Positions 1 to 40,233 of a stretch of DNA of 64,000 bases are shown in pieces. Made by a program: the position numbers and the translations under genes. Origin of the DNA: Candidatus Omnitrophota bacterium (GTDB lineage: Bacteria; Omnitrophota; Gorgyraeia; Gygaellales; Profunditerraquicolaceae); assembly GCA_028716245.1 (NCBI GenBank), contig JAQUQW010000003.1, positions 20,638 through 84,637 of the forward strand, in the 5' to 3' direction. The stretch's first letter is position 1, and each line of letters begins with the position of its first letter. Below the pieces are notes generated by a model. That model was not told the DNA's origin and did not search any database. It worked only from the letters and a program-made list of their open reading frames with translations.

Positions 1-774
1 CAGGCTAAATGCTTGTTTTGGCGGAATCCGTGTTATGGTGTTTTTAGGACAATGGTGGATAAAGAATATTCTTTTAAGCGGCGCTGATTCAATCCTAGAA
101 GCAAGATAATCGCTAAATTCACCGTGCCAGGGAGAGCCGTAGATGAAAAATTTACCGTTGAACTTACGTATAATTATACGATCATCATTTAAGACCGTCG
201 CCCTTGAGTGTTTATGCCAGAGTCTGGCGGTGGTGCTTTTGCCTGCCCCGGATTTACCGGCGAAAAGCAAACCCCGGCCACCGACATCTTTTATTCCCAC
301 AGAATGAGTAAAGATACCCTGATTCCTCTGGGCAAAATAATTTATCAAAAGCACCTGAAGAAAATCATAGATTATGTCCGAGGTATTCCAAACCTTGCCT
401 TTATTCTTCTTAGGCAATAGATAAACTTTTACTCTATCAAAAGTTTTATTTACCAGCATAATTTGTTTTTTGTCCTCAAGCGGGCATTTATAGATATAGA
501 TATCGCCTCTTTTAAGCAGGCGCCAGTTCTCGTTTTTATCCTGAAAATGATAGGTAATAAATACCGGTTTTGTATTCAAGACATCGGGAAGTTTATCCGC
601 TATTTCGATATCAATTACAATATCCGGCCTTTGGCTTCCTTTATAGAAGAAATTATCAAACCGTTCAGCAGCTTCCAGCTTCTGTCCTTCCGCGCTAAAC
701 TGCTCTAAAGGGAAACAACTTTGCATCAAGATAACCGTATCCGCGATTTTAAGATTAACCTTGTAGTCTATCAT
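1..774 (-). CDS. HPr kinase/phosphorylase C-domain-like serine kinase (partial; C-terminus lies beyond window start)
   Basis: Own translation of minus strand from ATG 774..772 gives an uninterrupted frame to position 1. It is absent from the ORF track only because it runs off the edge. P-loop ...IKDVGGRGLLFAGKSGAGKSTTARLWH... encoded ~290..215 is typical of the HprK C-terminal domain. Start overlaps stop of upstream rSAM gene (TAATG). Confidence 0.6.
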   Translation of the reverse strand, partial: MIDYKVNLKIADTVILMQSCFPLEQFSAEGQKLEAAERFDNFFYKGSQRPDIVIDIEIADKLPDVLNTKPVFITYHFQDKNENWRLLKRGDIYIYKCPLEDKKQIMLVNKTFDRVKVYLLPKKNKGKVWNTSDIIYDFLQVLLINYFAQRNQGIFTHSVGIKDVGGRGLLFAGKSGAGKSTTARLWHKHSRATVLNDDRIIIRKFNGKFFIYGSPWHGEFSDYLASRIESAPLKRIFFIHHCPKNTITRIPPKQAFSL

Positions 775-1892
775 TATGACACGATGCTCCTTTCAGGATA
801 AATTTTCATTCTTTTGCCGGCCTTTGCTTTTACCATCATCTTTTTTGCTGTTTCTTCTGCCAATTGGCAATAATATAACACTGGCGCTTCTTCGTCACCC
901 GTCTCTAAATACGCCCTTGCCGGGCAATGATAGCAGATTGGCCGCCAAGAGCAATCTTTGCATTTAGAGTCGGTTTTAAAGCGCTCATTTAATATTTGTG
1001 TAGGCCAACGATAAAAACCCTCTTTGAATGGTGTAGTTTTTAAATCTATGCTAAATTGATCTGAAAATATACAAAACTTAAGCCGTCCATAAGGATTAAT
1101 AAAAAATTGCTGCATCCAGGAATTGCAATGATAAAGCAGGCTTCTCTCCTGTTTTAAATCGGGAAAATCGCTATGGAGCCCCTTTTGATATTCTCCCCAG
1201 ATATCCGGGTCTTGTTTTCTTAACTCCACCAGCTCTTCAAAAGAAAGCCGGTGATTACACGGCGCCTTATCGCCATTTACCCGAGGATAAATCATCGGGT
1301 CATATTTAAAACGATACTTATTGTCCGCAGGCTTGCCTAAAAGCTCCTCTGTCCATCTTTTTATCTTGGCAATCTCATTTTTGTTCTGTTTTAGGCAATT
1401 GGATTTTAATATAAGTTTAGTATTGTTCTTTGATAATAACTTAATATTTTTAATTACCCGAAAAAAAGAACCGCTAACTTGGGTAATTGATTCATAGGAT
1501 TCTTGGGTTATGCCATTTAGAGTTATCTCAATGGAAAAAGGAGGATATTTCGCCAAATAATTGACAATTTCTTTGCTCAGGCTGTAACCATTGGTAAAAA
1601 GCGTGATAATAAAACCCTTACTTTTAGCATAGGAATAGATTTCTAAAAAATCACCCCTGACTAAAGGATCTCCGCCGGTAAAAGTAAGCCAAAGACAACC
1701 TTCTTGCTGAAGCGTATCAAGAATTTTCTTCCACTCCTCAGCAGTCAATTCTCTGTCTTCCGAACTTTTGCAATAGCAATGAACGCAGTTTAGATTACAA
1801 CGATAGGTGAATTCAAGCTGGCCGCTCCAGGGATAATGCTCTTTTTTACTATTTAATTTACGAATAAAACGACCGAGGCTATTTTTTTCCAT
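774..1892 (-). CDS. radical SAM / SPASM-domain peptide-modifying enzyme
   Basis: CNLNCVHCYC (CxxxCxxC) near N-terminus; C-terminal Cys-rich SPASM-like region (CNSW...CIF...CKDCSWRPICYHCPARAY...YYC). Confidence 0.8.
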   Translation of the reverse strand: MEKNSLGRFIRKLNSKKEHYPWSGQLEFTYRCNLNCVHCYCKSSEDRELTAEEWKKILDTLQQEGCLWLTFTGGDPLVRGDFLEIYSYAKSKGFIITLFTNGYSLSKEIVNYLAKYPPFSIEITLNGITQESYESITQVSGSFFRVIKNIKLLSKNNTKLILKSNCLKQNKNEIAKIKRWTEELLGKPADNKYRFKYDPMIYPRVNGDKAPCNHRLSFEELVELRKQDPDIWGEYQKGLHSDFPDLKQERSLLYHCNSWMQQFFINPYGRLKFCIFSDQFSIDLKTTPFKEGFYRWPTQILNERFKTDSKCKDCSWRPICYHCPARAYLETGDEEAPVLYYCQLAEETAKKMMVKAKAGKRMKIYPERSIVS

Positions 1893-1974
1893 TCTTTCAA
1901 ACGCTAATCCACACGAATTTCAAAGGTAATTAAGTACTATGCCCCCGGAATTCAAATAAACAACTAGGTAAATC

Positions 1975-2021
1975 ACCAAAAAAATAAAAAGGGTTCAGGA
2001 GGAAGCGCTGCTCAATAACCC
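1975..2021 (-). terminator. putative attenuator/terminator downstream of precursor gene
   Basis: On minus strand: GGGUU-(22 nt loop)-AACCC followed by UUUUUAUUUUUUU, ~55 nt after precursor stop. Weak stem, strong U-tract. Confidence 0.3.
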
Positions 2022-2074
2022 AGTCGCAGCCTCGTTCATCATTAATTAGATATTGTGTTCCCAATTAAAATGGC

Positions 2075-2299
2075 TTATGAAGTGCCTGTCGTGGTTCTAG
2101 TAAAATTAATTAATGGACCTGATCCTGAAGGGAATATGCAGCCCCAAACCGCCCCTTTATTGTGCGAATACCCTTTCAAGGACGGTCCAGCGATTGCGGT
2201 TTGGTACCCCCAACCGTAACAATTACACGACAACACCGCCTGCTCAGGGTTGAGTTTTACCCGCGTAATCACCGGCTTAAATTTAGGTTTTTTGGGCAT
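2075..2299 (-). CDS. RiPP precursor peptide candidate (74 aa)
   Basis: AAGGAG 7 nt upstream of ATG at 2299 (the ORF-track N-terminal extension MLILERRSK contains the SD). Sequence MPKKPKFKPVITRVKLNPEQAVLSCNCYGWGYQTAIAGPSLKGYSHNKGAVWGCIFPSGSGPLINFTRTTTGTS: Lys-rich leader-like N-terminus, Gly/aromatic/Thr-rich C-terminal part with 3 Cys, no Asp, C-terminal Ser. Sits immediately after the PqqD gene. Confidence 0.55.
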   Translation of the reverse strand: MPKKPKFKPVITRVKLNPEQAVLSCNCYGWGYQTAIAGPSLKGYSHNKGAVWGCIFPSGSGPLINFTRTTTGTS

Positions 2300-2327
2300 C
2301 TTACTTCTCCTTTCCAGGATTAGCAAT

Positions 2328-2609
2328 TTATTTTACCGCTTTGATCTCTTTTAAGTCTTTTAATAATTTCTGCATCTCCTTGTCTACTTCTTCGGGCGTG
2401 GTATCAAACTCCTTCAGGAGCTTACTTTTAAGCTCGGTCAGCGTCCTTTTGCCGTCGAGCAATTCCCAAACCCTTGAAGCAACTTTATTTAAAGTATAGA
2501 TACAGTTTATCTCATCTGAGGTCTTATAAATCGGCAGAAGTATGGTCTCATCTTCAATCACCCGAGTTACCATATCGGAATTCTTGCGTAAAACAGTCTT
2601 TTCTTGCAT
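2328..2609 (-). CDS. PqqD-family RiPP recognition element protein
   Basis: 93 aa; ...LNKVASRVWELLDGKRTLTELKSKLLKEFDTTPEEVDKEMQKLL... matches the PqqD consensus. GGAGG 9 nt upstream of ATG 2609. Confidence 0.75.
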   Translation of the reverse strand: MQEKTVLRKNSDMVTRVIEDETILLPIYKTSDEINCIYTLNKVASRVWELLDGKRTLTELKSKLLKEFDTTPEEVDKEMQKLLKDLKEIKAVK

Positions 2610-4020
2610 TGGTTTTACCTCCTCTTGAAAGAATCTTCTCTATCGCCCACATCTTTTTTTCAGTTTTATCCCACTTTTTTATCGACCTATTGTTTTTTAG
2701 TTTTCTTTCTTTCAGAAATGCCGCCTTAAACGCATTATATCTACCGGTAACCAAATCAATTATAGCATGTTTTTCTTTTAACAAAAAGGCAATCTTTAAT
2801 AGGCGCAAAGTCGTTTCCAACGCGTCAAAACCTAAGATCAACGAATTTTTATAAAAAACAGCCGCCTTGGGGAATTTTCTTTGTTTTTCATATATCCGGC
2901 CTAAAAGATAATGGCTTTGCGCGTCTAAACGTTCAAATGATTGATACCTTAACAATAATTTCTTGGCTTTATGAATATTGCCGAGTTTAAATTCCGCGGC
3001 TGCCATTCCCAAGAGGTATTGCTCTTCTAGCTTATTAAACAATCCTTGATTGCCCTGCTTTAAAGCCAAGGAAAAATATGTTTTTGCTTTTTTAAAATTA
3101 TTTCTTTGCAGGAAAATTTGGCCCAAACCCAGAAAGCAAGCGGGGTTTTTGGGATCAACTTTCAATATTTTTGAAAATTCTTTTCTCGCTAAAGAAAACT
3201 TCCCCAGAGATAAGTAAAGCGGCCCATAATTATTATCTGAAACCCTGTAAGCGGGATCACAGGCGATTGCTTTTTCGTAGTATTCTTTTCTTCCCGTGGA
3301 CCTAAAAAGATTAAAATTCTCGGCTGCCGCTAAAGCGGCCCGGAAACGGTTTCTAAATTCTCCGGGAGAAAAATTATAGGCGAGCTCATCACCTAAATGC
3401 TTATACTCCATTGGTGTATAACCGCCGTTTACCGAATAGGCGATAGTGATTATTTGCGGCTGTCGTATCTTTCCCTTAAGCGTTTCTACCAAATGAGCTG
3501 GCGTAATCCAAGGTTTTCTTTTGCCTATATCGACTGTATTGTTTGCATTCACAAGGCTATCTATAACTAAAAAATCAGTATCGATATCAAGCAAAACCTT
3601 CTGCTTAAAAATAGGCAGATTTTTTAAGGTGCAGACAATAAATCTCCTGCCAGAAAGCCTGTTTGATAATTTTCTTTGCATGCACAGAGCGGCTTGCGGT
3701 ATACTGCCAGCTCCCGGCACCACCCAGTAAAAATCCCTGACAATGCCCTCCTGCATTGCCGGATAAATATAATTGCCGATATTTGCCTGCTTATCCAAAT
3801 CATTTTCATACTGTTGATAAGCTAAACTATGCTCTAAATCGCTTTTTAATTCCTTCAAAGTTTTTGCATCCCGAATTATATTATCTATCGGTTTTGCCTG
3901 ATAAAACCCAAAATCAATATGGGCGTCAATATGCACCAAATCAAGGTTTTTAAAACCCTTCTGCCGCCAAATGGTTAGCGCTGCATCATGGTCTTCGATA
4001 AGGAACACGCCTTTACTCAT
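2554..4020 (-). CDS. arginase/deacetylase-fold (UPF0489-like) metallohydrolase domain fused to C-terminal TPR repeats
   Basis: N-terminal motifs in arginase-family order: EDHDAALTI, VHIDAHIDF, LLDIDTDFLVID. C-terminal half has repeated TPR-like helices (AIACDPAY...YLSLGKF...LGQIFLQRNNFKKAKTYF...). Confidence 0.45.
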   Translation of the reverse strand: MSKGVFLIEDHDAALTIWRQKGFKNLDLVHIDAHIDFGFYQAKPIDNIIRDAKTLKELKSDLEHSLAYQQYENDLDKQANIGNYIYPAMQEGIVRDFYWVVPGAGSIPQAALCMQRKLSNRLSGRRFIVCTLKNLPIFKQKVLLDIDTDFLVIDSLVNANNTVDIGKRKPWITPAHLVETLKGKIRQPQIITIAYSVNGGYTPMEYKHLGDELAYNFSPGEFRNRFRAALAAAENFNLFRSTGRKEYYEKAIACDPAYRVSDNNYGPLYLSLGKFSLARKEFSKILKVDPKNPACFLGLGQIFLQRNNFKKAKTYFSLALKQGNQGLFNKLEEQYLLGMAAAEFKLGNIHKAKKLLLRYQSFERLDAQSHYLLGRIYEKQRKFPKAAVFYKNSLILGFDALETTLRLLKIAFLLKEKHAIIDLVTGRYNAFKAAFLKERKLKNNRSIKKWDKTEKKMWAIEKILSRGGKTNARKDCFTQEFRYGNSGD

Positions 4021-4415
4021 CTTTTGCGAAGTTTCATATAAACAGGTTTTAAAGACTTAATAATCAAAGGGACAATGACCACCATAAAGCTATTGATCAA
4101 CCTATTTCTCCAAATTGTAAGATTGATCATCCTATTATTTTTTATAATACCAACCACTTTACCGATAAACATTTCTCGGGTTATCGGTTCCGGCGCAGAC
4201 AGAGAATTGTCTCCCCGCGTATAGAGAAAATCCTTATTTTTCCTTACTAGCCGATGACAAATCAATTGGTTATTTACCCGGTATAAAATAATATCCCCGG
4301 CTCTTAAATCATCTGCCGGGAATTTTTTAATCACCAGTTTTTCTTTCGGCCGGATAAACGGCCACATACTAAACCCGGAGGTTTCAAAAAATAATAGATC
4401 TTCGGAATTATTCAC
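4017..4415 (-). CDS. S26-family signal peptidase I-like serine protease (SipW/archaeal type)
   Basis: GFSMWPFI (Ser), GDIILY, HRLV (His), TRGDNS box; C-terminal hydrophobic helix. Confidence 0.6.
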   Translation of the reverse strand: MNNSEDLLFFETSGFSMWPFIRPKEKLVIKKFPADDLRAGDIILYRVNNQLICHRLVRKNKDFLYTRGDNSLSAPEPITREMFIGKVVGIIKNNRMINLTIWRNRLINSFMVVIVPLIIKSLKPVYMKLRKR

Positions 4416-5325
4416 GGATCCCTTTCGGCGCGGGAAAATTCAACGCGTCGCAAACTTTACAAATCTCTGAACAGCTTCGGGATCCTTTTGCTAGCGATCG
4501 CCTGGCGCTTTTAAAAAAATCTGAAAACCAGATGTCCTTAAGAGTTGAATCTTTGGCATCCCCCATAACTACCTTCCACAATCCATCCGCGCAGCATAAA
4601 GGCACAGTCCCATCATAACCAATAACTATTTCGGTTAACGGCCTCAGGCATTGGATCTTTAGCGGATTTTTTAAAAAAACTCCCGCGTTTGGGCTTTGGC
4701 CGGCACGATTGCCGAAGTAATCGGTTTTAGCCCTATAATTAATTATAACTTCGCCACCCAAAACAGCTGAATTATTTAGCAGTTTCCTTATGGAGGGATT
4801 CAATTTGTGCTGATCATTATAATTATTTATGATAATCCTATTTAAACCGGATTCGAATAGTTCATTCACTAAATTCGCGTTAATCAAAATGCCGTTAGTA
4901 TACAGATAAAAAAAATTGTTTTTCAATAGGCCCCTGGCAATTCTTATCCGAGAGGATAAACGCGCATCCAAAAGCGGTTCGTTATTGCAATGAAAGGCAA
5001 TGCTTCCAATAAAAGATAAATTTGCCAATTCATTAAGTATCTTTAGGTATAAACTCTCGAGCATAAGGTTTTTGGGATTTTTTGCTCCAGCTTTTGCCGA
5101 CGCCGGGCAAAAAGCGCAATCATTATTACAATAAGAAACGGTCTCAATAAATACTTTATCAAACAACTTATTTTTATCCGCAGGCACCCGGAAGTTATTT
5201 TTAATAACAATTTCTTTTAATTTGAGATAATTCTTTTGCATAAAATTGCTGCGGCGCAGGAATCTCCTAACCTTTGATCTTATGCCGTAAACATATTTAT
5301 TCTTATTCCTTATTTTAATTGTCAT
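4408..5325 (-). CDS. radical SAM / SPASM-domain enzyme (second)
   Basis: CNNDCAFCPAS rSAM motif; C-terminal CCADGLW...CSEICKVCD auxiliary-cluster motif. Confidence 0.8.
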   Translation of the reverse strand: MTIKIRNKNKYVYGIRSKVRRFLRRSNFMQKNYLKLKEIVIKNNFRVPADKNKLFDKVFIETVSYCNNDCAFCPASAKAGAKNPKNLMLESLYLKILNELANLSFIGSIAFHCNNEPLLDARLSSRIRIARGLLKNNFFYLYTNGILINANLVNELFESGLNRIIINNYNDQHKLNPSIRKLLNNSAVLGGEVIINYRAKTDYFGNRAGQSPNAGVFLKNPLKIQCLRPLTEIVIGYDGTVPLCCADGLWKVVMGDAKDSTLKDIWFSDFFKSARRSLAKGSRSCSEICKVCDALNFPAPKGIRE

Positions 5326-5355
5326 ATTAATCTTCTATTTAAGCTGTATCTCTTA

Positions 5356-5364
5356 TGTTATAAT
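5356..5364 (+). promoter_or_regulatory. extended -10 promoter element TGT-TATAAT, 6 nt before ATG 5371 (possible leaderless transcript)
   Basis: Sequence atgTTATAATttgaatATG; no SD between -10 and start. Confidence 0.3.
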
Positions 5365-6513
5365 TTGAATATGAACGAAAGGAAAATACCCAGTGAACAT
5401 AAATTAATCTTGCTTTGTACAAGATTAAAGATAAACGAACCTAACCGGAATGAAATCTTGGGCCTTCTAAATGGGCCGCTTAACTGGAATAGAATAAGAG
5501 AATTCTCCGTCCGGCAAGAAATCCTGCCTTTTCTGTATTATAACTTAAACAGGCTGAATCTTCAAGATTCCATCCCTCAGGAGATGTTCGCAATAATGAA
5601 AAACTACCATTATTCTAACCTTGTTAGAAACTCAATGTTAGAAAAAGAGGCTGCGCTTATTCTGAAATCGGCCAATTCCGCGGGCATAACCATTATGCCT
5701 TTCAAAGGCTTTAGCTTAATACAAACAATATACCAGAGCAATCCTGAGCTAAGGATAATGGTTGATGTCGATATACTTGTAAAAGAAACTGAATTTCCGA
5801 AAATAAAAAATATTCTTACCCAAACAGGCTATATAGAAAATACGGATACTATTGGCAATAAAATCGCTTTCGAAAACGTCTTCTCAAAAAAGCTTTCCGC
5901 GAGTTTTTCGTCAATTATAGAGATCCACACCGAGCTTTCTCCTGCCCGCCCTTACCCGCTCAAACTCCCGCAACTTTGGGAAAGAACCCGGGAAATAAAC
6001 ATTAATAGCCAGAAAATATCGCTTTTATCCGCGGAAGACACATTTTTATCCTTAGCCCTGCATTTACGCAGGCATCTGCGGAGGCTAACTTTAAAATTTA
6101 TAGTCGATATTTCTGAATTGTTAAGCGCGAGCGGCGAAAACCTTGATTGGAAATATATAAAGAAATCGGCCCAAGATAGCCATATGATAACAACCGTTTA
6201 TCTTTCTCTTTATATCACGAAAGAACTGCTGGATATGCCTGTTGCCGGCAAAATCTTAAATGAATTCCGGCCAAATATCATTAAAAACGCCCTGATAAGT
6301 TTATCGATAAACAAACATAATTTTTTTACTTTTAAAAAATGGCAAGCCACGTTTTTGCGGTTTTTACTTTTTGACCGCCTTTTAGACTTCTTCCTTTATC
6401 TCTGGCGGGTATCTTTTGTCGAAAGATTTATCGGCAGACGGGCCCGCAAAAAGACTAAAACAAACGCTATACCGAGAATACCGATAAGAAATATTGTGGA
6501 AACCAGGAAGTAA
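5365..6513 (+). CDS. PF14907-like putative nucleotidyltransferase (RiPP-cluster-associated)
   Basis: ORF track starts at TTG 5365; first ATG at 5371. ...FKGFSLIQTIYQSNPELRIMVDVDILVKETEFPKIKNILTQTGY... resembles the G-x-A...R-x-DxDxLV core of the uncharacterised nucleotidyltransferase family found next to PqqD/HprK genes in lasso-type clusters. Confidence 0.55.
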   Translation: MNMNERKIPSEHKLILLCTRLKINEPNRNEILGLLNGPLNWNRIREFSVRQEILPFLYYNLNRLNLQDSIPQEMFAIMKNYHYSNLVRNSMLEKEAALILKSANSAGITIMPFKGFSLIQTIYQSNPELRIMVDVDILVKETEFPKIKNILTQTGYIENTDTIGNKIAFENVFSKKLSASFSSIIEIHTELSPARPYPLKLPQLWERTREININSQKISLLSAEDTFLSLALHLRRHLRRLTLKFIVDISELLSASGENLDWKYIKKSAQDSHMITTVYLSLYITKELLDMPVAGKILNEFRPNIIKNALISLSINKHNFFTFKKWQATFLRFLLFDRLLDFFLYLWRVSFVERFIGRRARKKTKTNAIPRIPIRNIVETRK

Positions 6514-7439
6514 AAAAGCGCTTTGGCTATAATAATATCTGATTTTAAGCTTTTACTAAATCTATCCACGTAATGAACAAACCTATCTTCTCCGCCAAAT
6601 AGATAACTCGTCCCTATTCTGATGCCATTGGGAAGCTTATCAATGTAGCTTTGGAATACAGAAAAAAATCCATATCTGGTATTATACTTATCGATAAAAT
6701 CGTTTCCTGTGCGCAAAAATACGCATTTTAAAAGCTTCGAGTAAGAAACCGGCATTGCATTGTGTTCCTCTGCCCCACTTCCTATTCTCTGAATCAAAAT
6801 ATTTCCGGTTCGATCATCCAGCAGCCTTTCTCTTAATTCTAAAAAGGAAAGCGGGTTGCCCCGCTCGGTAGCGTAAAAACCAAACGTTGTATCTACAAAT
6901 ACCCATTTTTTTAAGCTTTTAATATAAACTTCGTTCACCGAGTGAGCCAGCGGCTTAAACTTCTCGCTTTCTAAAGCCCATAATCTTGATTTTAAGCCTA
7001 AACCGGATAAATACGCGGAGAATAAAATCGAGCGGTGAAAACAATTCGCGCCCCGGGCTCCCTCTCTTATCTGCCTGAGCATGCCATCGGGAGAATCCCA
7101 TTTTAAAACTCGGCCCGTACGGTTATTATTCGAAAATATATTCATTACATATTTTGCGGCTTCAAGCATAGCTTCAAAGTCATCGTTTTTGTTCCTGATT
7201 AAAGGCCGGATCTCATTTTTAAAAATATCGAGCCCGGGCTTATCCGGTTCGAGATGAAAATATCCCGGGGCCTTATCCGGCTGCCAGTAAAAATCATCCG
7301 GGTTAACGGACTCAATAATATCCCAGACAGCCAAATGTGAAAACGCGCGGCTTTTGAATAACGAATAACCAATAACCCCGTCGATTAAAATAATTATAAA
7401 AACAGCTAGGTAAATATTTCTTTTAATTATTCTTTTCAT
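6396..7439 (-). CDS. membrane-anchored transglutaminase-like cysteine protease
   Basis: N-terminal TM helix; GANCFHRSILFSAYLSGLGLKSR (Cys), HSVNEVYI (His), WVFVDTT (Asp) as in the transglutaminase-core / lasso B2 protease superfamily. Confidence 0.55.
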   Translation of the reverse strand: MKRIIKRNIYLAVFIIILIDGVIGYSLFKSRAFSHLAVWDIIESVNPDDFYWQPDKAPGYFHLEPDKPGLDIFKNEIRPLIRNKNDDFEAMLEAAKYVMNIFSNNNRTGRVLKWDSPDGMLRQIREGARGANCFHRSILFSAYLSGLGLKSRLWALESEKFKPLAHSVNEVYIKSLKKWVFVDTTFGFYATERGNPLSFLELRERLLDDRTGNILIQRIGSGAEEHNAMPVSYSKLLKCVFLRTGNDFIDKYNTRYGFFSVFQSYIDKLPNGIRIGTSYLFGGEDRFVHYVDRFSKSLKSDIIIAKALFYFLVSTIFLIGILGIAFVLVFLRARLPINLSTKDTRQR

Positions 7440-8169
7440 ATCCGCTTAATTTACACCTAAGAATATGGTGAATAAAAATCAGATTCCCCAATAAGTATCT
7501 CTTCCACAACCTTTTCGGCTGCTGCCACAATCTGTGCAGCCATTCAAGCCCAAATTTAATCATCCAGTTCGGCGCTCTTTTTCGTTGGCCGGACAACCAA
7601 TCAAACACGGCGCCTACAGCCCAATATAAATTAACATTTAACGCACCTATATTATTAGCTATCCATTTTTCTTGTTTCGGAACCCCCATCCCAACCATTA
7701 ATATATTTGGCTTTAAACTGTTAATTTCTTGAATGATTTTCTGCTCTTCGGATTTAGCAAAAAAACCCTCCCGGCTGCCTACAATTCTTAATCCTTTGGC
7801 CTTCAATGCTTCTGCTGTCTTTTTAACGGTTCCCTCCCGGCCTCCCAATAAATAAATGGTTATCTTTCGATCTTTCAGTTCGGAAACTAACCTATCAAAA
7901 AAATCCAATATGTTTACCCTTTCCGGCAAAGGGTTACCTAAAAATCTCGCGGCCCAGACCACGCCCTGGCCTCCGGTGTAAACCAAGTCTGCTTTTTGCA
8001 GAATTTTTTTATATTCATTATCGATTAAGGCGGTATTTACACAGTGCGCGTTAAGATAGGTTATAAATTTAGCCTTATCCGTAAGGGCGTATTCCAGAAT
8101 TTTCCCTATGATATCATCGGCAGCCAGCGCCCCAACCTCTATGCCTAAAAAATTAATAGTTTTATGCAT
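7423..8169 (-). CDS. WecB/TagA/CpsF-family glycosyltransferase
   Basis: 248 aa; conserved ...VYTGGQGVVWAARFLG...ERV.G.DF...GVPKQEKW...DWLSGQRKRAPNWMIKFGLEWLHRLWQQPKRLWKRY matches the family throughout. Confidence 0.75.
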   Translation of the reverse strand: MHKTINFLGIEVGALAADDIIGKILEYALTDKAKFITYLNAHCVNTALIDNEYKKILQKADLVYTGGQGVVWAARFLGNPLPERVNILDFFDRLVSELKDRKITIYLLGGREGTVKKTAEALKAKGLRIVGSREGFFAKSEEQKIIQEINSLKPNILMVGMGVPKQEKWIANNIGALNVNLYWAVGAVFDWLSGQRKRAPNWMIKFGLEWLHRLWQQPKRLWKRYLLGNLIFIHHILRCKLSGYEKNN

Positions 8170-8186
8170 CTAAAAATAGAAATAAA

Positions 8187-9920
8187 TTACTGATTATGAA
8201 AAAAATCCCGGTAAGCCTGGCTTTCGGATAAAAGCTGGTCATGGACGCCTGCTTCTATTTTTCCATCCCCTCTTAAAAAATATATCCTATCCGCGTCTTT
8301 TATCGAAAACAGCCGGTGAGAAATAACTAGGGTACTTAAACCCTGCCTCTTTTGCCTCAAAGCCTTGAATAGCCGCTCTTCGGTAAAAGAATCCACGGAA
8401 GAAGTGGCTTCATCAAGAATAAGCAAATGGGGATTTTTTAATATCGCCCGGGCGATAGAAATCCGCTGTTTAAGCCCTTGTGAGAGGCGGCAGGCATCCT
8501 CGCCGATCAAAGTATGATAACCCTGAGGCAATTGACTGATAAAATCGTGAACACAGGCAATTTTGGCCGCCTCGATTATCAATTCTTCTTTAATATTTTT
8601 AAAACCATACCTTATATTTTCTTTTATGGAAACATCAAATAAAAACGGCTGTTGAGTAGCGACAGCTATTCTTTCTCTTAAGGATTTTAATTCTATTTCT
8701 CTCAAGTCCAAACCATCCAAGCATATCCGGCCCGCGTCAGGATCGTATAACCGCAGGATCAGATTAATCAGCGTGGTTTTGCCGCATCCCGAAGGTCCGA
8801 CTATCCCGGTCCATGAACAAGCAGGGATCTTAAAATTAAGCTCATTGATAACGGGTTTTCCATTATACCCAAAACGCACATCTTTAAACAGAATTTCTCC
8901 TTTTATGGCGGGTAATGTTTTTGCTTCTGGCGCGCTTTTTATCAAAGGCCGGGTATTCATAATCTCAAAGAAGTTATTCAGGGAGACCGCTTCCTGCGTA
9001 AGAAAAGCGAAATTGTTGCTCAGAGACCCCAGTAACCCTCCTAACTGAGTAAGATACAGCATAACCGCGGTATAGCTGCCCAGCGTCATTCTTCCTTTAA
9101 TTATCAACCACCCGCCATAAAGAGTGATTGCCCCGTAGATCGCCTTGGTTAAAAAAGACGAACTCAAAGAATTGATTGTGGTCCAGCGAAAACTTTTTAT
9201 CCTCCAGCGGATATTCTCAATCCAAGATCTTAAATAACTCCGCCTTTGATATGACTCCAAGCCGAATGCCTTAATAATCAAAACCCTGGAAAAAGCTTCA
9301 TAAACCTTTTTGGAAACTAAAGCGCTGTATTTCCAGAGCTCTTGATAAATGGGCCTGAGTTTTTTCTGCAGGTAGACACTATGCAGGATAAAGAGAGGGC
9401 TTAGAATAAGCAAAAACACAGTCATCCGGGCATTAATCCAAAACGAAATCCCCAGAATAATGAATAACTTGAAAATATCCACCAAGAGGCGCGGGAACTG
9501 TTCGAGGATAAAGTTGGCAACGTTCTCTACATCGGAAAGCCTGTAAACATTTTCGCCTACGGATTGGGATTGAAAAAAACTTAAATCCAGGGAATAGAAT
9601 TTTCTGATAAACCGGCCGGCTAAATCGAGCTTTAACTTTATGGCTATTTTGTTTTTTATGATATCTTCGGCGGCCTTAACCGATATAGTGAATATGAATA
9701 TCGCCGCTCCCACAATAGACAGGTTCAGGAATTTGTCAAAGTTTCTGGCGATAAACGCCTTGTCGATAAACAACTTGGAAAGATACGGCGTGATCAGCGC
9801 GAGGCTGGAAGAAAAAAGACCCAATAAAAATAATACGAGGATCCGTTTCCGGTAAAAAAATATAAATTTTGCTAGGAGTTGATTATTGCGGAAAAGCTTA
9901 AATCTATTTAAAAATTCCAT
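8187..9920 (-). CDS. ABC exporter, fused permease + ATPase (type I exporter)
   Basis: Six predicted TM helices then Walker A GPSGCGKTT, signature LSQGLKQRISIARA, Walker B LILDEATSSVD. ORF track start is GTG 9935; first ATG at 9920. Confidence 0.85.
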   Translation of the reverse strand: MEFLNRFKLFRNNQLLAKFIFFYRKRILVLFLLGLFSSSLALITPYLSKLFIDKAFIARNFDKFLNLSIVGAAIFIFTISVKAAEDIIKNKIAIKLKLDLAGRFIRKFYSLDLSFFQSQSVGENVYRLSDVENVANFILEQFPRLLVDIFKLFIILGISFWINARMTVFLLILSPLFILHSVYLQKKLRPIYQELWKYSALVSKKVYEAFSRVLIIKAFGLESYQRRSYLRSWIENIRWRIKSFRWTTINSLSSSFLTKAIYGAITLYGGWLIIKGRMTLGSYTAVMLYLTQLGGLLGSLSNNFAFLTQEAVSLNNFFEIMNTRPLIKSAPEAKTLPAIKGEILFKDVRFGYNGKPVINELNFKIPACSWTGIVGPSGCGKTTLINLILRLYDPDAGRICLDGLDLREIELKSLRERIAVATQQPFLFDVSIKENIRYGFKNIKEELIIEAAKIACVHDFISQLPQGYHTLIGEDACRLSQGLKQRISIARAILKNPHLLILDEATSSVDSFTEERLFKALRQKRQGLSTLVISHRLFSIKDADRIYFLRGDGKIEAGVHDQLLSESQAYRDFFHNQ

Positions 9921-9926
9921 ATTTTT

Positions 9927-9932
9927 ATTATA
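9927..9932 (-). promoter_or_regulatory. TATAAT hexamer 6 nt upstream of ABC-exporter ATG (inside the atpC/ABC junction)
   Basis: Minus strand: ...TAA GATGTG TATAAT AAAAAT ATG GAA...; same TATAAT-N6-ATG geometry as at 5359. Confidence 0.25.
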
Positions 9933-9938
9933 CACATC

Positions 9939-10190
9939 TTACTTAAGAAGAATCGTGGCTTTGTTCTGCAGGACCTCAAGATACCCGGTTTGTTTTGTTT
10001 CTATAGCCTTGGTTAGGCCGGTGCTATCCTTAAAAGTAATTACCCCGGGTTTGAGCTTGGCAATCACCGGGGCATGAAACGCTAAAATGCCAAGATAACC
10101 TGATTCCGAAGGAGCCACCAGAGAAACCGCCTCTCCTTCATATATTGTCTTATCGCTGGAATAAATACCGATCTGAAAAATATTAGCCAT
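9939..10190 (-). CDS. atpC: ATP synthase F1 epsilon subunit (short form, N-terminal beta-sandwich only)
   Basis: 83 aa, position after atpD; ...HAPVIAKLKPGVITFKD... typical epsilon N-domain; no C-terminal helical hairpin. Confidence 0.7.
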   Translation of the reverse strand: MANIFQIGIYSSDKTIYEGEAVSLVAPSESGYLGILAFHAPVIAKLKPGVITFKDSTGLTKAIETKQTGYLEVLQNKATILLK

Positions 10191-36774: not shown

Positions 36775-39700
36775 TCAACTAAAATTCCCAAAACGTTTCC
36801 GCAATTCTTCGATAGCAAATATCGATAGCATAAATAGAAATAATATCACCCAGTCCCCTGAGCTTAAACCCGTAGTATTGAATATCTTCTGAAAAAACGG
36901 CACGTAGATCAAGACGCAGGTAAAAATAAACGAAATGGCAATACTCCAGAAAATACGCATATTACTGAAAAACCCGATCCTAAATGTTGAATATTTTTCG
37001 CTGCGGCAATTAAAAACATTGGCGATTTGCATCACGACAATACCAACAAAAAGAATGGTCATTGCCTTCAGATGCAGCGGATTAGTAAAGGTAGTGTCAT
37101 TTGGCTCAAGCTGCATTCCGGGTTTCCATCCTCCCTGAAAAAGTATAAGATAATAGGAACCTAAGGTTGCCGCCGTGCTCAACAGCCCCAAAATGATATA
37201 ACCTCTAAAGAGCACCATTTTATCAATCACTCCTTTATTCTTAGGCCTTGGCGGAAGGTTCATTATCCCCGGCTCGGGTTTCTCCGCGCCTAAGGCCAAG
37301 GCGGGAAAAATCTCCGTGCCCAAATCAATAGCTAAAATCTGCAGTACGGCAATCGGCACGGGAATCTTAAATAAAACATAGAATATAAAAGGTATCCCCT
37401 CGGGTACAAGGTGGGCGAAGATATAGGTAATAAATTTCTTGATATTATCGAATACCGCCCGGCCCTCTTCAATAGCCGAAACGATACTGGCAAAATTATC
37501 GTCGAGCAGAACCATCTCGGCGGATTCTTTGGCCACGTCAGTCCCGCGCAGCCCCATCGCCACGCCAATATCGGAACGCTTAAGGGCAGGGGCATCGTTG
37601 ACGCCGTCTCCGGTCACCGCCACGATATTACCCATCTCCTTAAAAGTATTTACCACCCTTAATTTATGCTCGGGATTTGCCCTGGCAAAAATAATTTCTT
37701 TGCTGCCAACCTTCTCCTTTAATTGCTCATCGCTCATATGAATCAAATCTGTTCCGTTAATAACTTCGTAATTTTGCGAAGACACAATCCCTACCTGCCT
37801 GGCGATAGATAGGGCGGTTACCTGATAATCACCGGTAATCATCACCACGCGAATTCCGGCTTTTTTGCAAATCCCGACAGCATCTTTTACTTCCGGCCGG
37901 GGTGGATCATACATACCCGTGGCTCCGACAAAAACCAACTCTTTTTCAACCGACTGCGCCGTCGCCCCGGAAATATCCTTGGGATTAATTTTACAAAATG
38001 CAAAACCCAAAACCCTTAAACCTTCTTCGGCAAACCTCTCTACAGAAGCGGATATTTCCGATTTCTTCTCTACAGTCAAATCCGCGATATCGTTTCCAAG
38101 CATAACCTTATTACAAAGCTCCAGGATCTCTTTAGGAGAGCCCTTAACCAACGCATAAGTATCTCCATCGGGAAGAGTATGGATAGAGCTCATTCTCTTA
38201 CGTATCGATTCAAATGGAAAACGTTTTAGTACCGGATATTTTAGGCGCTCTTGGTCGGCGTCATAACCGGCTTTTCGCATTAAGGTCAATAATGCGGCTT
38301 CCGTCGGATCGCCAATAATACTCCAATACGTTATCGTCTCTGAGGGAGAATTTAGCTTTGCGGTATTGCATAATGCGCAAATATGCATCAGCTGATCAAA
38401 AGCAGCGCTCCGAAGAACATTTTTTAAAAGAACGCTGCCCTTACAAGTAAATTCTCCTGCCGGTTCATATCCGCTTCCGGAGGCTTCGATAACCTTATCA
38501 TCGATCCAAATTTTCCGGACACTCATTTGATTGGTTGTCAGCGTGCCGGTTTTATCCGTGCAAATAACGTTGGTACAACCCAACGTTTCTACTGAAGAAA
38601 GTTTTTTGATCAGGGCTTTCCGCTTAGCCATCCGCTGCACGGCCATGGCCAAGGCAAGGGTCAAAGTAGGCATGAGCCCCTGAGGAACATTGGCCGTAAT
38701 AATACCTATCGCAAACATTCCCGAAGCAAAAACCGTCAATTTAGTAAAAAATAAACCCGCAAAGAAAAAAACCAAACCCATAGCTACCGATATAAATGAA
38801 ATCAATTTGCCGATGCGATTGACCTCTCTTTGCAGCGGGCTGAGATCTTCTTTGACCGTCTGCGTCAGGTAGGCGATTTTACCAATCTCGGTCCCCATAC
38901 CCGTGGCAATGACCACCGCTTTTCCCATGCCTGAGGCAACGCTGGTTCCGGCAAAAACCAAATTAGGCATTTCCAGCCACAGAAAATCCTTTCCGTCATG
39001 AAATTCCTCTGAAAATTTATAGGCCAGCTTGGATTCTCCGGAGAAGGCGCTATTGTTCAAGCGTAATTCGGCAGCTTCGATCAACCTGGCATCCGCGGGG
39101 ACGTTATCTCCTTCCTCCAGCATAATGATATCTCCCGGGACAATCTCGCTTGTAGGCACGAGCTTCTCCTTGCCCTCCCTGATTAGACGGGCATTAGATG
39201 GAATCAGTTTGGAAAGCGCCTCAATCGCCTTCTCCGCTTTAAACTCCTGCCAAAAACTAAATATCGCGTTAATAAAGACTACGGCAATGCAGGCCCAACC
39301 TGCCTCCGGCATCTGCGCCCAAAAACAAAGGGCGCCGCAAATCCACATCATCACCGCCAGTAAATTAGTAAGATGGAGCGAGAACCTTATAATCAAGGGG
39401 GTTTTTTTAACGGCTTTCAATTTATTGGTTCCATATACCTCCAGCCGTTTTCCCGCGGAAACTTCAGAGATACCGTTATCGCTGCTTGCCAATTCAAGAT
39501 AAATCTCCTCTTTGCTTAAAGCGATAAAACCTTCTTTCTCGATTCCTCCATACTTTAAGGCCCGATAGAGCTCCTCGTTGGTTGAGCAGTTCAGGATCTG
39601 CCGGACAAATACTTTATTATCCAAGAGTACGGCCAGCTTCGATAAAATTTTAAGATGCATTTCGCTTTCTACCAGCGGAGTCAGAAAAAACATAACCAAA

Positions 39701-40029
39701 TGCACCGGCTTCTTGTCAATGGAAGAAAAATCTATTCCTTCCCTTGAGATGCCAACAAATATCAATCCCTCTTTTAGTTCAGCTATTCTAGCATGGGGGA
39801 TAGCTATGCCATCCCCGATTCCGGTACTGCCAAGCTTTTCCCTTTTGAGAAGGCTTTCTAAAACACGTTTTTTGTCTTTAATTTTGCGGCTTTTATAAAG
39901 CTGGTCGACAATCTCCCGGATTACACCTTCACTTGTACGGGATTTCAAGTTTACGCTTAATAGATCCTTATATACCAAATCCGCGATTTTCACTTCTTGC
40001 TCTCCTTTTATACCAGCGTTCTCATACAA
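36775..40029 (-). CDS. P-type cation-transporting ATPase with N-terminal PTS EIIA(Ntr)-like domain
   Basis: N-terminal ~150 aa: ...GIGDGIAIPHARI... (EIIA type-2 active-site His). Remainder: DKTGTLT phosphorylation motif, TGDGVNDAPAL, 8-10 TM. TTG start. Confidence 0.85.
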   Translation of the reverse strand: MYENAGIKGEQEVKIADLVYKDLLSVNLKSRTSEGVIREIVDQLYKSRKIKDKKRVLESLLKREKLGSTGIGDGIAIPHARIAELKEGLIFVGISREGIDFSSIDKKPVHLVMFFLTPLVESEMHLKILSKLAVLLDNKVFVRQILNCSTNEELYRALKYGGIEKEGFIALSKEEIYLELASSDNGISEVSAGKRLEVYGTNKLKAVKKTPLIIRFSLHLTNLLAVMMWICGALCFWAQMPEAGWACIAVVFINAIFSFWQEFKAEKAIEALSKLIPSNARLIREGKEKLVPTSEIVPGDIIMLEEGDNVPADARLIEAAELRLNNSAFSGESKLAYKFSEEFHDGKDFLWLEMPNLVFAGTSVASGMGKAVVIATGMGTEIGKIAYLTQTVKEDLSPLQREVNRIGKLISFISVAMGLVFFFAGLFFTKLTVFASGMFAIGIITANVPQGLMPTLTLALAMAVQRMAKRKALIKKLSSVETLGCTNVICTDKTGTLTTNQMSVRKIWIDDKVIEASGSGYEPAGEFTCKGSVLLKNVLRSAAFDQLMHICALCNTAKLNSPSETITYWSIIGDPTEAALLTLMRKAGYDADQERLKYPVLKRFPFESIRKRMSSIHTLPDGDTYALVKGSPKEILELCNKVMLGNDIADLTVEKKSEISASVERFAEEGLRVLGFAFCKINPKDISGATAQSVEKELVFVGATGMYDPPRPEVKDAVGICKKAGIRVVMITGDYQVTALSIARQVGIVSSQNYEVINGTDLIHMSDEQLKEKVGSKEIIFARANPEHKLRVVNTFKEMGNIVAVTGDGVNDAPALKRSDIGVAMGLRGTDVAKESAEMVLLDDNFASIVSAIEEGRAVFDNIKKFITYIFAHLVPEGIPFIFYVLFKIPVPIAVLQILAIDLGTEIFPALALGAEKPEPGIMNLPPRPKNKGVIDKMVLFRGYIILGLLSTAATLGSYYLILFQGGWKPGMQLEPNDTTFTNPLHLKAMTILFVGIVVMQIANVFNCRSEKYSTFRIGFFSNMRIFWSIAISFIFTCVLIYVPFFQKIFNTTGLSSGDWVILFLFMLSIFAIEELRKRFGNFS

Positions 40030-40067
40030 ATAAAAAACCAGAGAACGCTTTCCCTGGCATGTTCTCT
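40030..40067 (-). terminator. leader terminator hairpin (AGAGAAC-N14-GUUCUCU + U6) immediately upstream of ATPase start; overlaps alternative antiterminator
   Basis: Plus-strand 40040..40046 / 40061..40067 inverted repeat; U-run from 40039..40030 on minus strand; 3' arm AGCGUUCUC is also exactly complementary to codons 3-5 (GAGAACGCU). Confidence 0.4.
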
Positions 40068-40233
40068 CAAAATTGGCTTACGAGGTTAGCTGTCGGGCTC
40101 GGGTCGAGTAACCCTAATCTGATATTTCCAGATATTGGCCCCAAGATCATTTTAGTCGATCGGATTCTTGGATTCCCCGCTATCTTTTTAGATTCACATA
40201 CAAGTCTAAAAAAAGATTAAGCTTATTAAAATA

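Follow-up and report, generated by a model that had tools for sequence, protein, structure and literature searches.

The uncharacterised SynChlorMet cassette, comprising ScmC, ScmD, ScmE and ScmF (TIGR04249, TIGR04248, TIGR04250 and TIGR04251, respectively), is the closest described system to the gene cluster analysed here, and to our knowledge the TIGRFAMs text identifies no precursor for it. In the case of paeninodin and pseudomycoidin, the Ser at the C-terminal end of the lasso precursor is phosphorylated by HprK homologues, and a nucleotidyltransferase then glycosylates that phosphate (PMC8498205). The peptide arginases OspR, FlmR and OhkR convert Arg to ornithine, and the precursor types listed for the known peptide arginases are NHLP, N11P, SCIFF, SCCRRSCN and DD(I/V)LF (PMC12703449). 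We analysed a 64-kb stretch of DNA, here called the window, and its region 1–9935 is a real cluster for a chemically modified small peptide (RiPP). The reading that we favour, with somewhat more confidence than doubt, is that the region represents one arm of a RiPP cluster from a large, Omnitrophota-centred family without a characterised product, for which we infer an rSAM/kinase/arginase pathway.

Every open reading frame listed in a previous sequence-only reading was found again, and its domain assignments are each backed by profile-HMM searches, only the transglutaminase match being borderline. As that reading had stated, all cluster genes lie on the minus strand except a plus-strand nucleotidyltransferase gene, and they directly follow the atp operon, atpC and the downstream ABC exporter gene being 3 nt apart. 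Neighbouring genes overlap or are separated by no more than 28 nt, apart from the precursor and rSAM A genes with 182 nt between them, and no terminator or attenuator was found 3′ of the precursor gene. The suspicion that cluster genes continue beyond position 1 proved right, as the kinase-like gene overlaps there, at its 3′ end, with another precursor gene (MGRKTKFKPVITRVKLNPEQAVLTC...).

As had been proposed, a genuine RiPP precursor is encoded by the 74-aa open reading frame at 2299–2075 on the minus strand: the frame is preceded, at a distance of 8 nt, by the ribosome-binding site AGGAG, syntenic copies occur across L002–L042 of the related loci, and its strongly conserved, positively charged leader, MPxKPKFxPxITRVKLNPEQAVL, is matched by at least 664 sequence-cluster representatives. 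The leader of the window precursor is MPKKPKFKPVITRVKLNPEQAVL(S), and its core, CNCYGWG...TTTGTS, contains no Asp or Glu, in agreement with the earlier remark that it lacks the geometry of a lasso core. Profile searches matched the precursor to no Pfam or NCBIfam family. L-x-C-x-C is present in all 145 precursor representatives analysed, an aromatic residue follows the C-x-C in 130, and 144 contain at least one additional Cys; Ser or Thr is the C-terminal residue in 144 of the 145. Across 181 cores, the architecture starts with C-x-C-(Tyr/Trp/Phe)-x-x-Gly, continues with hypervariable loops that hold one to three more Cys at semi-regular spacing, and ends with …A-S-S. The cores are long (32–75 aa) and hypervariable, and up to three precursor paralogues occur per locus. 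Only about 86% of the leaders have a small residue just ahead of the first Cys, so that the proposed leader cleavage site is a soft one. The sequence-only reading had not mentioned the most informative features, which are the C-x-C that opens the core, the Ser/Thr at the C-terminus and the active site of a peptide arginase.

A co-occurrence search had been suggested for the gene set, and with phmmer we compared the window proteins with 84 related loci, including flanks of up to ±10 kb where the contig allowed. The set recurs in about 30 Omnitrophota loci as PqqD, one or more precursors, usually three rSAM/SPASM paralogues, ScmC and an ABC exporter, to which an S26-type peptidase, a PF14907 nucleotidyltransferase and a peptide-arginase-like/TPR protein are often added. 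Acidobacteriota, Aminicenantes and Nitrospirae have a reduced version with PqqD, rSAM, precursor, ScmC and S24 genes. The leader of its precursors is again related (…PEEAVLGxCK), three Cys are present, and since all 27 of these minimal-type precursors end with Gly-Ser, the Ser terminus co-occurs with ScmC across phyla. Homologues of the core proteins number in the thousands. The cluster family is large, centred on and widespread in the tiny uncultured Omnitrophota, with a minimal form in other phyla.

The PqqD protein (2328–2609, minus strand; PF05402 at 1.8e-13) is a discrete RiPP recognition element (RRE), a leader-binding chaperone whose gene adjoins the precursor in most loci, and it also matches the ScmD, lasso-PqqD and PQQ-PqqD models, each below cut-off. 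Directly downstream of the precursor, rSAM/SPASM maturase A (774–1892, minus strand; Radical_SAM E 1e-22) shows the strongest conservation among the enzymes of the family: among the best 120 of 2,919 homologues, identities are 57–99% and nearly all at least 60%, and the source names given are all Omnitrophota/Omnitrophica. The three Cys of its CX3CX2C motif (C32/C36/C39) and its seven SPASM Cys are invariant or nearly so, and since the rSAM domain begins at about residue 27, there is no fused RRE. Its nearest solved relative is the thioether synthase SkfB (4.5e-15). Haem and mycofactocin enzymes are the top NCBIfam matches of the rSAM proteins, all far under cut-off, and AlbA and SkfB (for rSAM A) as well as StsB and PapB (for rSAM A paralogues and a distant homologue) are among the weaker ones; none of the curated cut-offs of the sactipeptide, ranthipeptide, darobactin/dynobactin and other named maturase models was reached, and the misfit to the first three classes that had been noticed before is thereby upheld. 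The reaction of an rSAM/SPASM enzyme is not predictable from its sequence. The short rSAM/SPASM(twitch) enzyme B (4408–5325, minus strand; SPASM 1e-11, Radical_SAM 3e-7) is a sub-clade-specific extra maturase, found only in L002 and L086–L091, where the gene order is always NTP_transf_5–rSAM B–S24. The pair of A and B, previously taken as a hallmark, therefore does not characterise the family, as three rSAM-A-like paralogues are the norm (20 of 32 loci). Further rSAM-A-like paralogues of our cluster probably sit past the window edge.

The putative peptide kinase, a P-loop protein of HprK/PEPCK fold (1–774, minus strand), has 258 of its 315 codons inside the window, its 3′ end lying past position 1. 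A newer Pfam release places it in the ScmC family (precomputed Pfam, PF27840), in which the P-loop and a DDR motif are invariant, and it is closer to the ScmC and HprK_rel_B models than to HprK_rel_A. The relation of this family to HprK is remote (sequence E of about 0.03–0.1 against the PDB), and as the best fold match is PEPCK, the protein could phosphorylate a non-peptide target. Within the retrieved DNA, ScmC was detected in 25 of the 33 precursor-bearing loci.

The arginase/TPR protein (2554–4020, minus strand), recognised by UPF0489/FlmR_OhkR_N, the NCBIfam peptide arginase model (1e-11) and TPR models, has a peptide-arginase-like domain at residues 1 to about 230 and TPR repeats at about 245–400. 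All six metal ligands of OspR (listed in PMC10028609) are aligned and conserved; against the NCBIfam model, 45 bits are obtained where the cut-off is 350, from an alignment over the N-terminal third only. Arg occurs in 41 of 44 cores, and its density is somewhat higher with the arginase gene than without it (5.6 versus 3.7 per 100 aa). The signal-peptidase-like protease of the S26B (archaeal/SipW) type (4017–4415, minus strand; Peptidase_S24 1.6e-7, sigpep_I_arch 2.7e-11) is a putative leader peptidase. Conservation of its S16, H54 and D69 reaches 90% or more among 31 homologues, and the gene recurs beside the system both within Omnitrophota and in phyla far from it. The PF14907 nucleotidyltransferase (5365–6513, plus strand; NTP_transf_5 2.7e-46) is embedded antisense in the operon, has K114-G115 and D134-x-D136 conserved in 27 homologues, and is present in 16 of the 33 precursor-bearing loci. 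The arginase, nucleotidyltransferase and S26 genes were each found in only about half of these loci, which is partly due to truncated contigs.

Three genes complete the region. The membrane-anchored transglutaminase-like protein (6396–7439, minus strand) reaches 24.7 bits against a Transglut_core cut-off of 23, has hydrophobic segments at residues 4–22 and 300–337, and keeps C133, H166 and D183 in four homologues. It is followed upstream by a WecG/TagA/CpsF-family glycosyltransferase (7423–8169, minus strand; PF03808 2e-61, TIGR00696 6.5e-42), whose distribution is as restricted. The half-size ABC exporter (8187–9935, minus strand) consists of TMD and NBD domains only (ABC_membrane and ABC_tran), without a C39 peptidase domain, and homologues of 370–830 bits occur in 18 of 33 loci.

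Several other explanations of the region have to be weighed. If it combined two unrelated units, the RiPP cassette would cover about 1–5325, followed by a cell-envelope module of ABC, WecG, transglutaminase-like and possibly nucleotidyltransferase genes before the atp operon. The WecG protein indeed scores as a TagA/TarA/EpsA-type enzyme, its gene and the transglutaminase-like gene accompany the system and rSAM B in L002, L087 and L088 only, and other loci adjoin polysaccharide export or glycosyltransferase genes (L006, L007). However, ABC and NTP_transf_5 genes accompany the RiPP genes in many loci and in varying order, the block of WecG, transglutaminase, nucleotidyltransferase, rSAM B and S24 genes stays contiguous at 62–66% identity although the ABC gene moves, and the genes overlap or are tightly spaced. 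The starts of the nucleotidyltransferase and rSAM B genes are only 39 nt apart, so that rSAM B is most likely transcribed, on the minus strand, by read-through from upstream. We regard such a composite as a tentative and somewhat unlikely option; the pathway membership of the transglutaminase-like and WecG genes is uncertain. It appears unlikely to us that the cluster simply adds an ordinary member to the sactipeptides or ranthipeptides, with rSAM/SPASM enzymes that form Cys-to-carbon thioethers and with the other genes as incidental tailoring genes or neighbours. Such a reading would agree with the Cys-containing core, the invariant first two Cys, the seven-Cys SPASM of rSAM A with SkfB as best solved relative, and the matches to AlbA, SkfB, StsB and PapB, but these maturase models give 50–90 bits against cut-offs of 300–850, and the precursor matches no family. 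The characterised sactisynthases that we know of have an N-terminal fused RRE, whereas the RRE of the window is a separate PqqD. Furthermore, the kinase-like protein, the S26 peptidase and the Ser C-terminus are not incidental, as they are kept with the system across phyla.

A reading of the peptide as a redox cofactor precursor or maturation substrate of the PQQ or mycofactocin kind, and not as a natural product for secretion, is suggested by the combination of PqqD with PqqE/MftC-like rSAM proteins, which is the cofactor paradigm, by the MftC and PqqE models among the better matches, and by the very wide conservation inside one phylum. We nevertheless consider it very unlikely, since cofactor precursors have conserved cores, whereas the cores found here are hypervariable and multi-copy, and the system has its own ABC exporter and a leader peptidase. 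It is extremely improbable that a lasso cluster is encoded whose asparagine-synthetase-like cyclase lies outside the window. A B1-like PqqD, a transglutaminase fold, an HprK-like kinase, a PF14907 nucleotidyltransferase and an ABC exporter are shared with Firmicutes lasso clusters, but the core offers no Asp or Glu for ring closure, and no HMM match to lasso B2 was obtained; as a membrane protein with a borderline Pfam match, the transglutaminase-like protein was rejected as a B2 protease. The earlier reading, which had seen no cyclase, was correct for the window, as NadE (45296–46981) is the only PP-loop ORF in its 64 kb, and an SGGxDS PP-loop ORF of more than 350 aa was also absent from the 84 related loci with flanks of up to 10 kb where the contig allowed. 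In L007 and L008, which are closely related, the stretch downstream of ScmC contains precursor and rSAM genes together with genes for a U32 peptidase and a glycosyltransferase, and no cyclase.

For the favoured RiPP pathway, we infer all catalytic steps as follows. The stand-alone PqqD would bind the leader and hand the peptide to the rSAM/SPASM enzymes. Apart from A and from B, the extra enzyme of the sub-clade, these probably include two further A-like paralogues encoded past the window edge. They would cross-link the core, most likely by Cys-derived thioethers anchored on the C-x-C; the four core Cys could also form plain disulfides. The arginase-fold/TPR protein may hydrolyse core Arg to ornithine, the ScmC-type protein may phosphorylate the C-terminal Ser in the way HprK homologues do for paeninodin, and the PF14907 nucleotidyltransferase may attach a glycosyl or nucleotidyl group to this phosphate, as in pseudomycoidin. 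The membrane-associated S26-type peptidase is predicted to cut the leader, likely after the small residue that follows A-V-L, and the ABC transporter would export the product. The WecG and transglutaminase-like proteins may contribute a lineage-specific decoration or may be unrelated envelope proteins.

Like SynChlorMet, the system combines an HprK-like protein (there annotated as 'conserved hypothetical') with a PqqD homologue and multiple PqqE-like rSAM/SPASM enzymes. The Scm models match the window proteins, with haem and mycofactocin models outscoring them for the rSAM proteins, but their scores are far from the cut-offs (ScmC 21/125, ScmD 33/100, ScmE 75/400, ScmF 57/400), and unlike SynChlorMet, the system has an evident precursor family as well as the S26 peptidase, the arginase/TPR protein, the nucleotidyltransferase and the exporter. 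With paeninodin and pseudomycoidin (PMC8498205), it shares the HprK-fold P-loop protein, the nucleotidyltransferase, a discrete PqqD-type RRE, an ABC exporter and Ser-ending precursors; the lasso accessory set recognised earlier stands for the kinase/PF14907/PqqD trio and fails for the transglutaminase-like protein, and with neither lasso cyclase, B2 protease nor Asp/Glu ring acceptor, the class-defining enzymes are instead rSAM/SPASM proteins. The arginase domain, for which OspR is the best sequence and the best fold match, resembles OspR, FlmR and OhkR in its six binuclear-metal ligands and in being encoded in a RiPP cluster with Arg-containing cores; it differs in its fusion to a C-terminal TPR domain and its association with an rSAM/PqqD system, and the precursor type is absent from those of PMC12703449. 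SipW/archaeal-type (S26B) signal peptidase I is the best match of the protease, with Ser, His and Asp kept, yet the window protease is small (132 aa), is encoded in a RiPP operon, and would act on a leader without a hydrophobic signal-peptide core. The sactipeptide/ranthipeptide maturases SkfB, AlbA, PapB and StsB likewise combine rSAM with a full SPASM and a Cys-containing core; in contrast, our system stays under the family cut-offs and has a separate RRE, three to four paralogous rSAMs per cluster and a different tailoring set. The label 'undescribed' holds insofar as no product or name for the family was found in the databases and papers searched, but it was too strong for the core, as PqqD, two rSAM/SPASM enzymes and an HprK-like protein constitute the database-defined SynChlorMet architecture.

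Our comparisons show that the 74-aa ORF of the window (2075-2299, minus strand) belongs to a precursor family that is genetically locked to a discrete RRE, to SPASM-type radical SAM (rSAM) enzymes, to a protein of HprK fold, to an S26-type peptidase and to an exporter, and that a peptide-arginase-like enzyme and a PF14907 nucleotidyltransferase (NTase) are linked to it in many lineages. The sequence-only reading had taken this ORF for a RiPP precursor, and the assignment is well founded: an AGGAG ribosome-binding site ends 8 nt before the ATG at position 2299, the ORF adjoins PqqD and rSAM genes at over 30 loci, and a hypervariable core follows a leader that is nearly invariant along 23 positions. 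The leader consensus, obtained from small ORFs adjoining homologues of the rSAM/SPASM maturase rSAM A, is M-x-(K/R)-K-P-K-F-(K/R)-P-x-I-T-R-(V/I)-K-L-N-P-E-Q-A-V-L, and the cores behind this common leader are mutually unrelated in sequence. When the window peptide was run exhaustively with HMMER against 1.84 billion cluster representatives, it found 664 relatives of 55-144 aa, and these align to it almost exclusively in the leader. The sequence x-C-x-C stands directly behind A-V-L in all 145 representatives analysed, Tyr, Trp or Phe follows C-x-C in 130 of them, one to four additional Cys are present in 144, and 144 likewise end with Ser or Thr (Ser 140, Thr 4). In a set of 181 cores, the start reads C-x-C-(Y/W/F)-x-x-G, with the Gly in 131, and is followed by about 22 residues, a Cys, about 13 residues, another Cys, and about 19 residues before the …A-S-S end. 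This combination of a recognition leader, a few fixed positions for putative modification and diversifying loops is what characterises a RiPP precursor. No Pfam or NCBIfam model (June 2026) matches it. A protein of 1,586 aa that matched the precursor core (P0242) is a Thr/Gly/Pro-rich repeat protein and was dismissed as a compositional artefact.

The precursor gene lies in the left 10 kb of the window, where close-packed minus-strand genes just downstream of atpD-atpC surround one embedded plus-strand gene. The minus-strand genes encode an ABC exporter (9935-8187; ABC_membrane and ABC_tran), a glycosyltransferase (8169-7423; Glyco_tran_WecG, 2e-61), a transglutaminase-like (TGase-like) protein of 347 aa with membrane segments, the short rSAM/SPASM enzyme rSAM B (5325-4408; SPASM, 1e-11, and Radical_SAM), the S26-type peptidase (4415-4017; Peptidase_S24 or archaeal-type signal peptidase I), an arginase/TPR protein (4020-2554; UPF0489/FlmR_OhkR_N and TPR), PqqD (2609-2328; PF05402, 1.8e-13), the precursor, rSAM A (1892-774; Radical_SAM, E 1e-22), and the HprK/PEPCK-fold protein ScmC (774-<1), and the plus-strand gene encodes the NTase (5365-6513; NTP_transf_5, 3e-46). 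Pfam and NCBIfam profile scans supported every domain that had been named from the sequence, two of them weakly at the sequence level: the transglutaminase core of the TGase-like ORF reached 24.7 bits with a cut-off of 23 (PF01841, at threshold only), and the HPr-kinase similarity of the cut ScmC ORF has an E-value of about 1e-3. Neighbouring genes overlap by 1-56 nt or are at most 28 nt apart, the stop codon of rSAM A and the ATG of the kinase-like gene having one base in common; only the precursor and rSAM A are separated by a longer spacer, of 182 nt. No terminator or attenuator was found 3' of the precursor gene, where the fold of 1960-2074 has a z of -0.2 and a consensus scan resembled shuffled sequence. 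It had been suspected that further cluster genes lie beyond position 1, and a short Logan contig, from exact-protein look-ups that gave contigs of 1.6 and 2.3 kb, bore this out, as the roughly 230 bp gained complete the ScmC gene and cover the initial 25 codons of a next ORF, a second precursor gene (MGRKTKFKPVITRVKLNPEQAVLTC…) that overlaps the 3' end of the kinase-like gene; the cluster is thus cut by the window edge.

The NTase gene is antisense inside the operon, with 39 nt between its start and the divergent start of rSAM B (5325-5365), and at its 3' end it shares 118 nt (6396-6513) with the convergent TGase-like gene. The same arrangement is found in the related loci L002, L087, L088, and L091, and such embedding implies antisense read-through transcription or internal promoters. 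The adjoining ATP synthase epsilon subunit (9939-10190, minus) is only 83 aa long and consists of the beta-sandwich domain alone, without the C-terminal helical regulatory domain, and the epsilon subunit of L002 has the same reduced form. In the remainder of the window, we noted a transporter of the amino-acid-permease family fused to a C-terminal P-II nitrogen-regulatory domain (42585-44453, minus) in a neighbourhood of nitrogen metabolism (GlnA type III, GOGAT, NadE), and an ORF of 1,462 aa (54827-59215, minus) without any Pfam match at E <= 1e-5. An Rfam scan of the whole window gave a single match, a distant c-di-AMP riboswitch (RF00379, 72 bits; 40059-40233, minus), and the window contains no tRNAs. 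Directly downstream of this riboswitch, an ORF of 1,084 aa (36775-40029, minus) encodes a P-type cation ATPase joined to a PTS EIIA-2 domain, a domain combination that is unusual under c-di-AMP control.

The gene set recurs widely. A collection of 5.8 billion proteins contains 2,919 rSAM A homologues, and among the best 120 of these, identities are 57-99%, nearly all at least 60%, and every source name given is Candidatus Omnitrophota or Omnitrophica. The kinase-like fragment is 100% identical to P0121, a 315-aa NCBI protein of a Candidatus Omnitrophica MAG, and P0121 and, with three exceptions, its listed relatives are placed in PF27840 ('ScmC'), a Pfam family of recent date. An rSAM A profile served to pick 78 loci from species-representative genomes, and every ORF in them was scored against the window proteins. 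The recurring set, found in Omnitrophota, one Saganbacteria MAG and one Aminicenantaceae MAG, comprises PqqD, one to three precursors, rSAM A, the ScmC protein, the ABC exporter, and two further rSAM/SPASM enzymes that score about 146 and 235 bits to rSAM A, and the S26-type peptidase, the arginase/TPR protein and NTP_transf_5 are frequent additions. In L002, whose rSAM A is 80% identical, everything from atpD through rSAM A is arranged as in the window. The block WecG-TGase-NTase(antisense)-rSAM B-S24 is contiguous at 62-79% identity in the sub-clade of the window (L002, L086-L091), to which rSAM B, the TGase-like protein and WecG are confined, and the position of the ABC gene varies. The pair of rSAM enzymes highlighted in the sequence-only reading does exist in this lineage but does not define the family, since rSAM B is limited to the sub-clade and 20 of 32 loci carry at least three A-like rSAM genes, counted within the DNA at hand; loci with a single one mostly lie on cut contigs. 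Among the relatives whose sequence continues past ScmC, the closest are L007 and L008, which encode there a U32 peptidase, extra precursors, a MazF-like toxin, two more rSAM enzymes, and a GT1 glycosyltransferase; in L007, the U32-family peptidase gene (2564-3724) follows ScmC and the MazF/PemK toxin gene (6407-6739) separates the extra precursors from the extra rSAM genes. On the Omnitrophota contig L004, the stretch preceding the main system (1563-9400) contains several additional rSAM genes, paired with PqqD-domain proteins of about 180 aa, and a second, divergent ScmC-like ORF, which suggests several paralogous systems per genome.

At lower identity (35-41%), rSAM A relatives are encoded in a compact PqqD-rSAM-(small ORF)-ScmC-S24 unit; they stem from MAGs of Acidobacteriota, Aminicenantes, Nitrospirae, delta-proteobacteria and Anaerolineae. 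Clustering of the small ORFs revealed a related family of precursors with the leader …KPYExPxhxxhxL(R/K)P(E/D)EAVLGxCK and a short core that has three Cys and an invariant C-terminal Gly-Ser. The association of a Ser C-terminus with ScmC and an S26-type peptidase across phyla argues that these are core parts of the pathway and not incidental neighbours. In the minimal units of the Acidobacteriota loci L056 (12321-20243), L059, L060, L066, L071, and L074, the S24/S26-like domain forms the N-terminus of a giant ORF of up to about 2,600 codons, as called mechanically in GC-rich DNA, in place of a protein of 130 aa.

From these associations a pathway can be proposed. PqqD would bind the KLNPEQAVL segment of the leader, which is standard RRE logic. 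The rSAM enzymes would then cross-link the peptide, and Cys-derived thioethers are the most economical guess given the invariant C-x-C, the semi-regular downstream Cys, and SkfB as the nearest solved enzyme, although sequence is unable to tell thioether formation from other rSAM chemistry. The arginase domain, in which the six binuclear-Mn ligands (His, DxHxD, DxD) of the arginase fold are present, may convert Arg to ornithine. It scored 44.9 bits with NCBIfam NF052474 (cut-off 350), aligning to model positions 4-90 of 287, and was searched against the PDB as the N-terminal domain alone; the full arginase/TPR query gave mainly TPR matches. Arg occurs in 41 of 44 cores, and its density is slightly higher where an arginase gene is present, a weak trend. 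The S26 peptidase, with conserved Ser16, His54 and Asp69 and an archaeal/SipW-type best model, would cut off the leader; the residue behind A-V-L is Ser, Ala or Thr in about 86% of leaders and Val stands at -3, a suggestive pattern that loosely fits the -3/-1 rule of signal peptidases. Export could proceed through the ABC transporter, which has no C39 protease domain. The ScmC protein, in which the HprK/PEPCK P-loop fold, the Walker A motif and a catalytic Asp-Asp motif are all present, may phosphorylate the C-terminal Ser, for which the invariance of a C-terminal Ser/Thr wherever ScmC occurs, distant phyla included, is circumstantial evidence. HprK homologues of lasso clusters phosphorylate precisely the C-terminal Ser of the precursor, with few other sequence requirements, and in the case of pseudomycoidin a nucleotidyltransferase then glycosylates the Ser phosphate (PMC8498205). 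The NTase of the window conserves the G…DxD nucleotidyltransferase motif, and our data suggest that the HprK-type kinase and the PF14907 NTase form a portable tailoring module for C-terminal serines whose use extends beyond lasso peptides.

Several elements appear to be new: the substrate family, the C-x-C and the C-terminal Ser that are invariant in it, the peptide-arginase-like enzyme with its fused TPR part, and the relocation of a kinase/nucleotidyltransferase module into an rSAM pathway. Tentatively, and with rather more doubt than conviction, we propose a new RiPP class that is phylum-wide in ultra-small Omnitrophota, has a minimal ancestor in Acidobacteriota/Aminicenantes, and differs in chemistry from sactipeptides and ranthipeptides. 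Its products would carry rSAM cross-links anchored on the N-terminal C-x-C-Tyr motif, ornithine in arginase-bearing lineages, and a C-terminal Ser that is phosphorylated and perhaps glycosylated or nucleotidylated as well, through a kinase/nucleotidyltransferase pair so far known from lasso peptides alone. The hypervariable multi-copy scaffold may mediate interactions of these putatively host-dependent nanobacteria, and the products may be ecologically important for Omnitrophota, of which we know no cultured representative. An uncharacterised, SynChlorMet-like cassette type known only from databases gains a concrete substrate family, in which leader, C-x-C-Tyr-x-x-Gly motif and C-terminal Ser are clear candidate sites for recognition and modification, and peptide arginases are extended to a TPR-fused form in rSAM pathways. 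As the maturases are 60-80% identical across the candidate phylum and the cores are hypervariable, the enzymes are likely substrate-tolerant, which would be useful for peptide engineering.

The gene cluster is real, and the main negative conclusions drawn from the sequence are correct. Judged by its gene content, it is not a lasso system. The PqqD-type RRE resembles lasso B1 (lasso_PqqD_Bac, 5e-7, under its cut-off), but in 84 loci there is no PP-loop ORF of more than 350 aa that could be a lasso cyclase, the only PP-loop ORF of the 64-kb window is NadE, the annotated loci contain no Asn_synthase Pfam domain, the TGase-like ORF has no lasso-B2 NCBIfam match and is not a B2 protein by that measure, and the window core is devoid of Asp and Glu as ring acceptors, which a lasso core has at positions 7-9. 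Seven conserved SPASM Cys in rSAM A and a Cys-containing core, with the invariant C-x-C and more, recall sactipeptides and ranthipeptides; the AlbA, SkfB, StsB and PapB models, however, gave only about 50-88 bits with cut-offs of 300-850 for rSAM A, its L004 paralogues and the distant L057 homologue, and no curated threshold for sactipeptide, ranthipeptide, dynobactin, WgkB, mycofactocin or PQQ maturases was reached, in agreement with the earlier view that the sactipeptide and ranthipeptide architectures do not fit. In the full-text literature, mostly outside subscription journals, we found no description of the precursor family, of ScmC or of a RiPP with rSAM, HprK-like and PqqD components, nor, in the same scope, of this system as an Omnitrophota RiPP, as SynChlorMet or under PF14907, PF27840 or TIGR04249. 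To call the whole gene set undescribed was nevertheless an overstatement for the core cassette, although the substrate family does appear new. The closest described entity is SynChlorMet (SCM), a database-defined cassette whose architecture of an HprK-like protein, a PqqD homologue and at least two PqqE-like rSAM/SPASM enzymes is present in the window. NCBIfam matches of the kinase-like protein, of PqqD and of the rSAM enzymes include the SCM models, which also rank among the most frequent ones for ScmC-like homologues. None of the SCM models reached its cut-off (ScmC 20.9/125, ScmD 33.2/100, ScmE 74.9/400, ScmF 56.7/400), none of 32 ScmC-like homologues came near that of ScmC (best E-value 7e-12), and the rSAM proteins score higher with haem and mycofactocin rSAM models. 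With scores so far under the curated cut-offs, the system is SCM-like in architecture and not a member by those models, and the broader ScmC family of Pfam does include the kinase-like protein, PF27840 being assigned in the precomputed annotation to an identical full-length copy.
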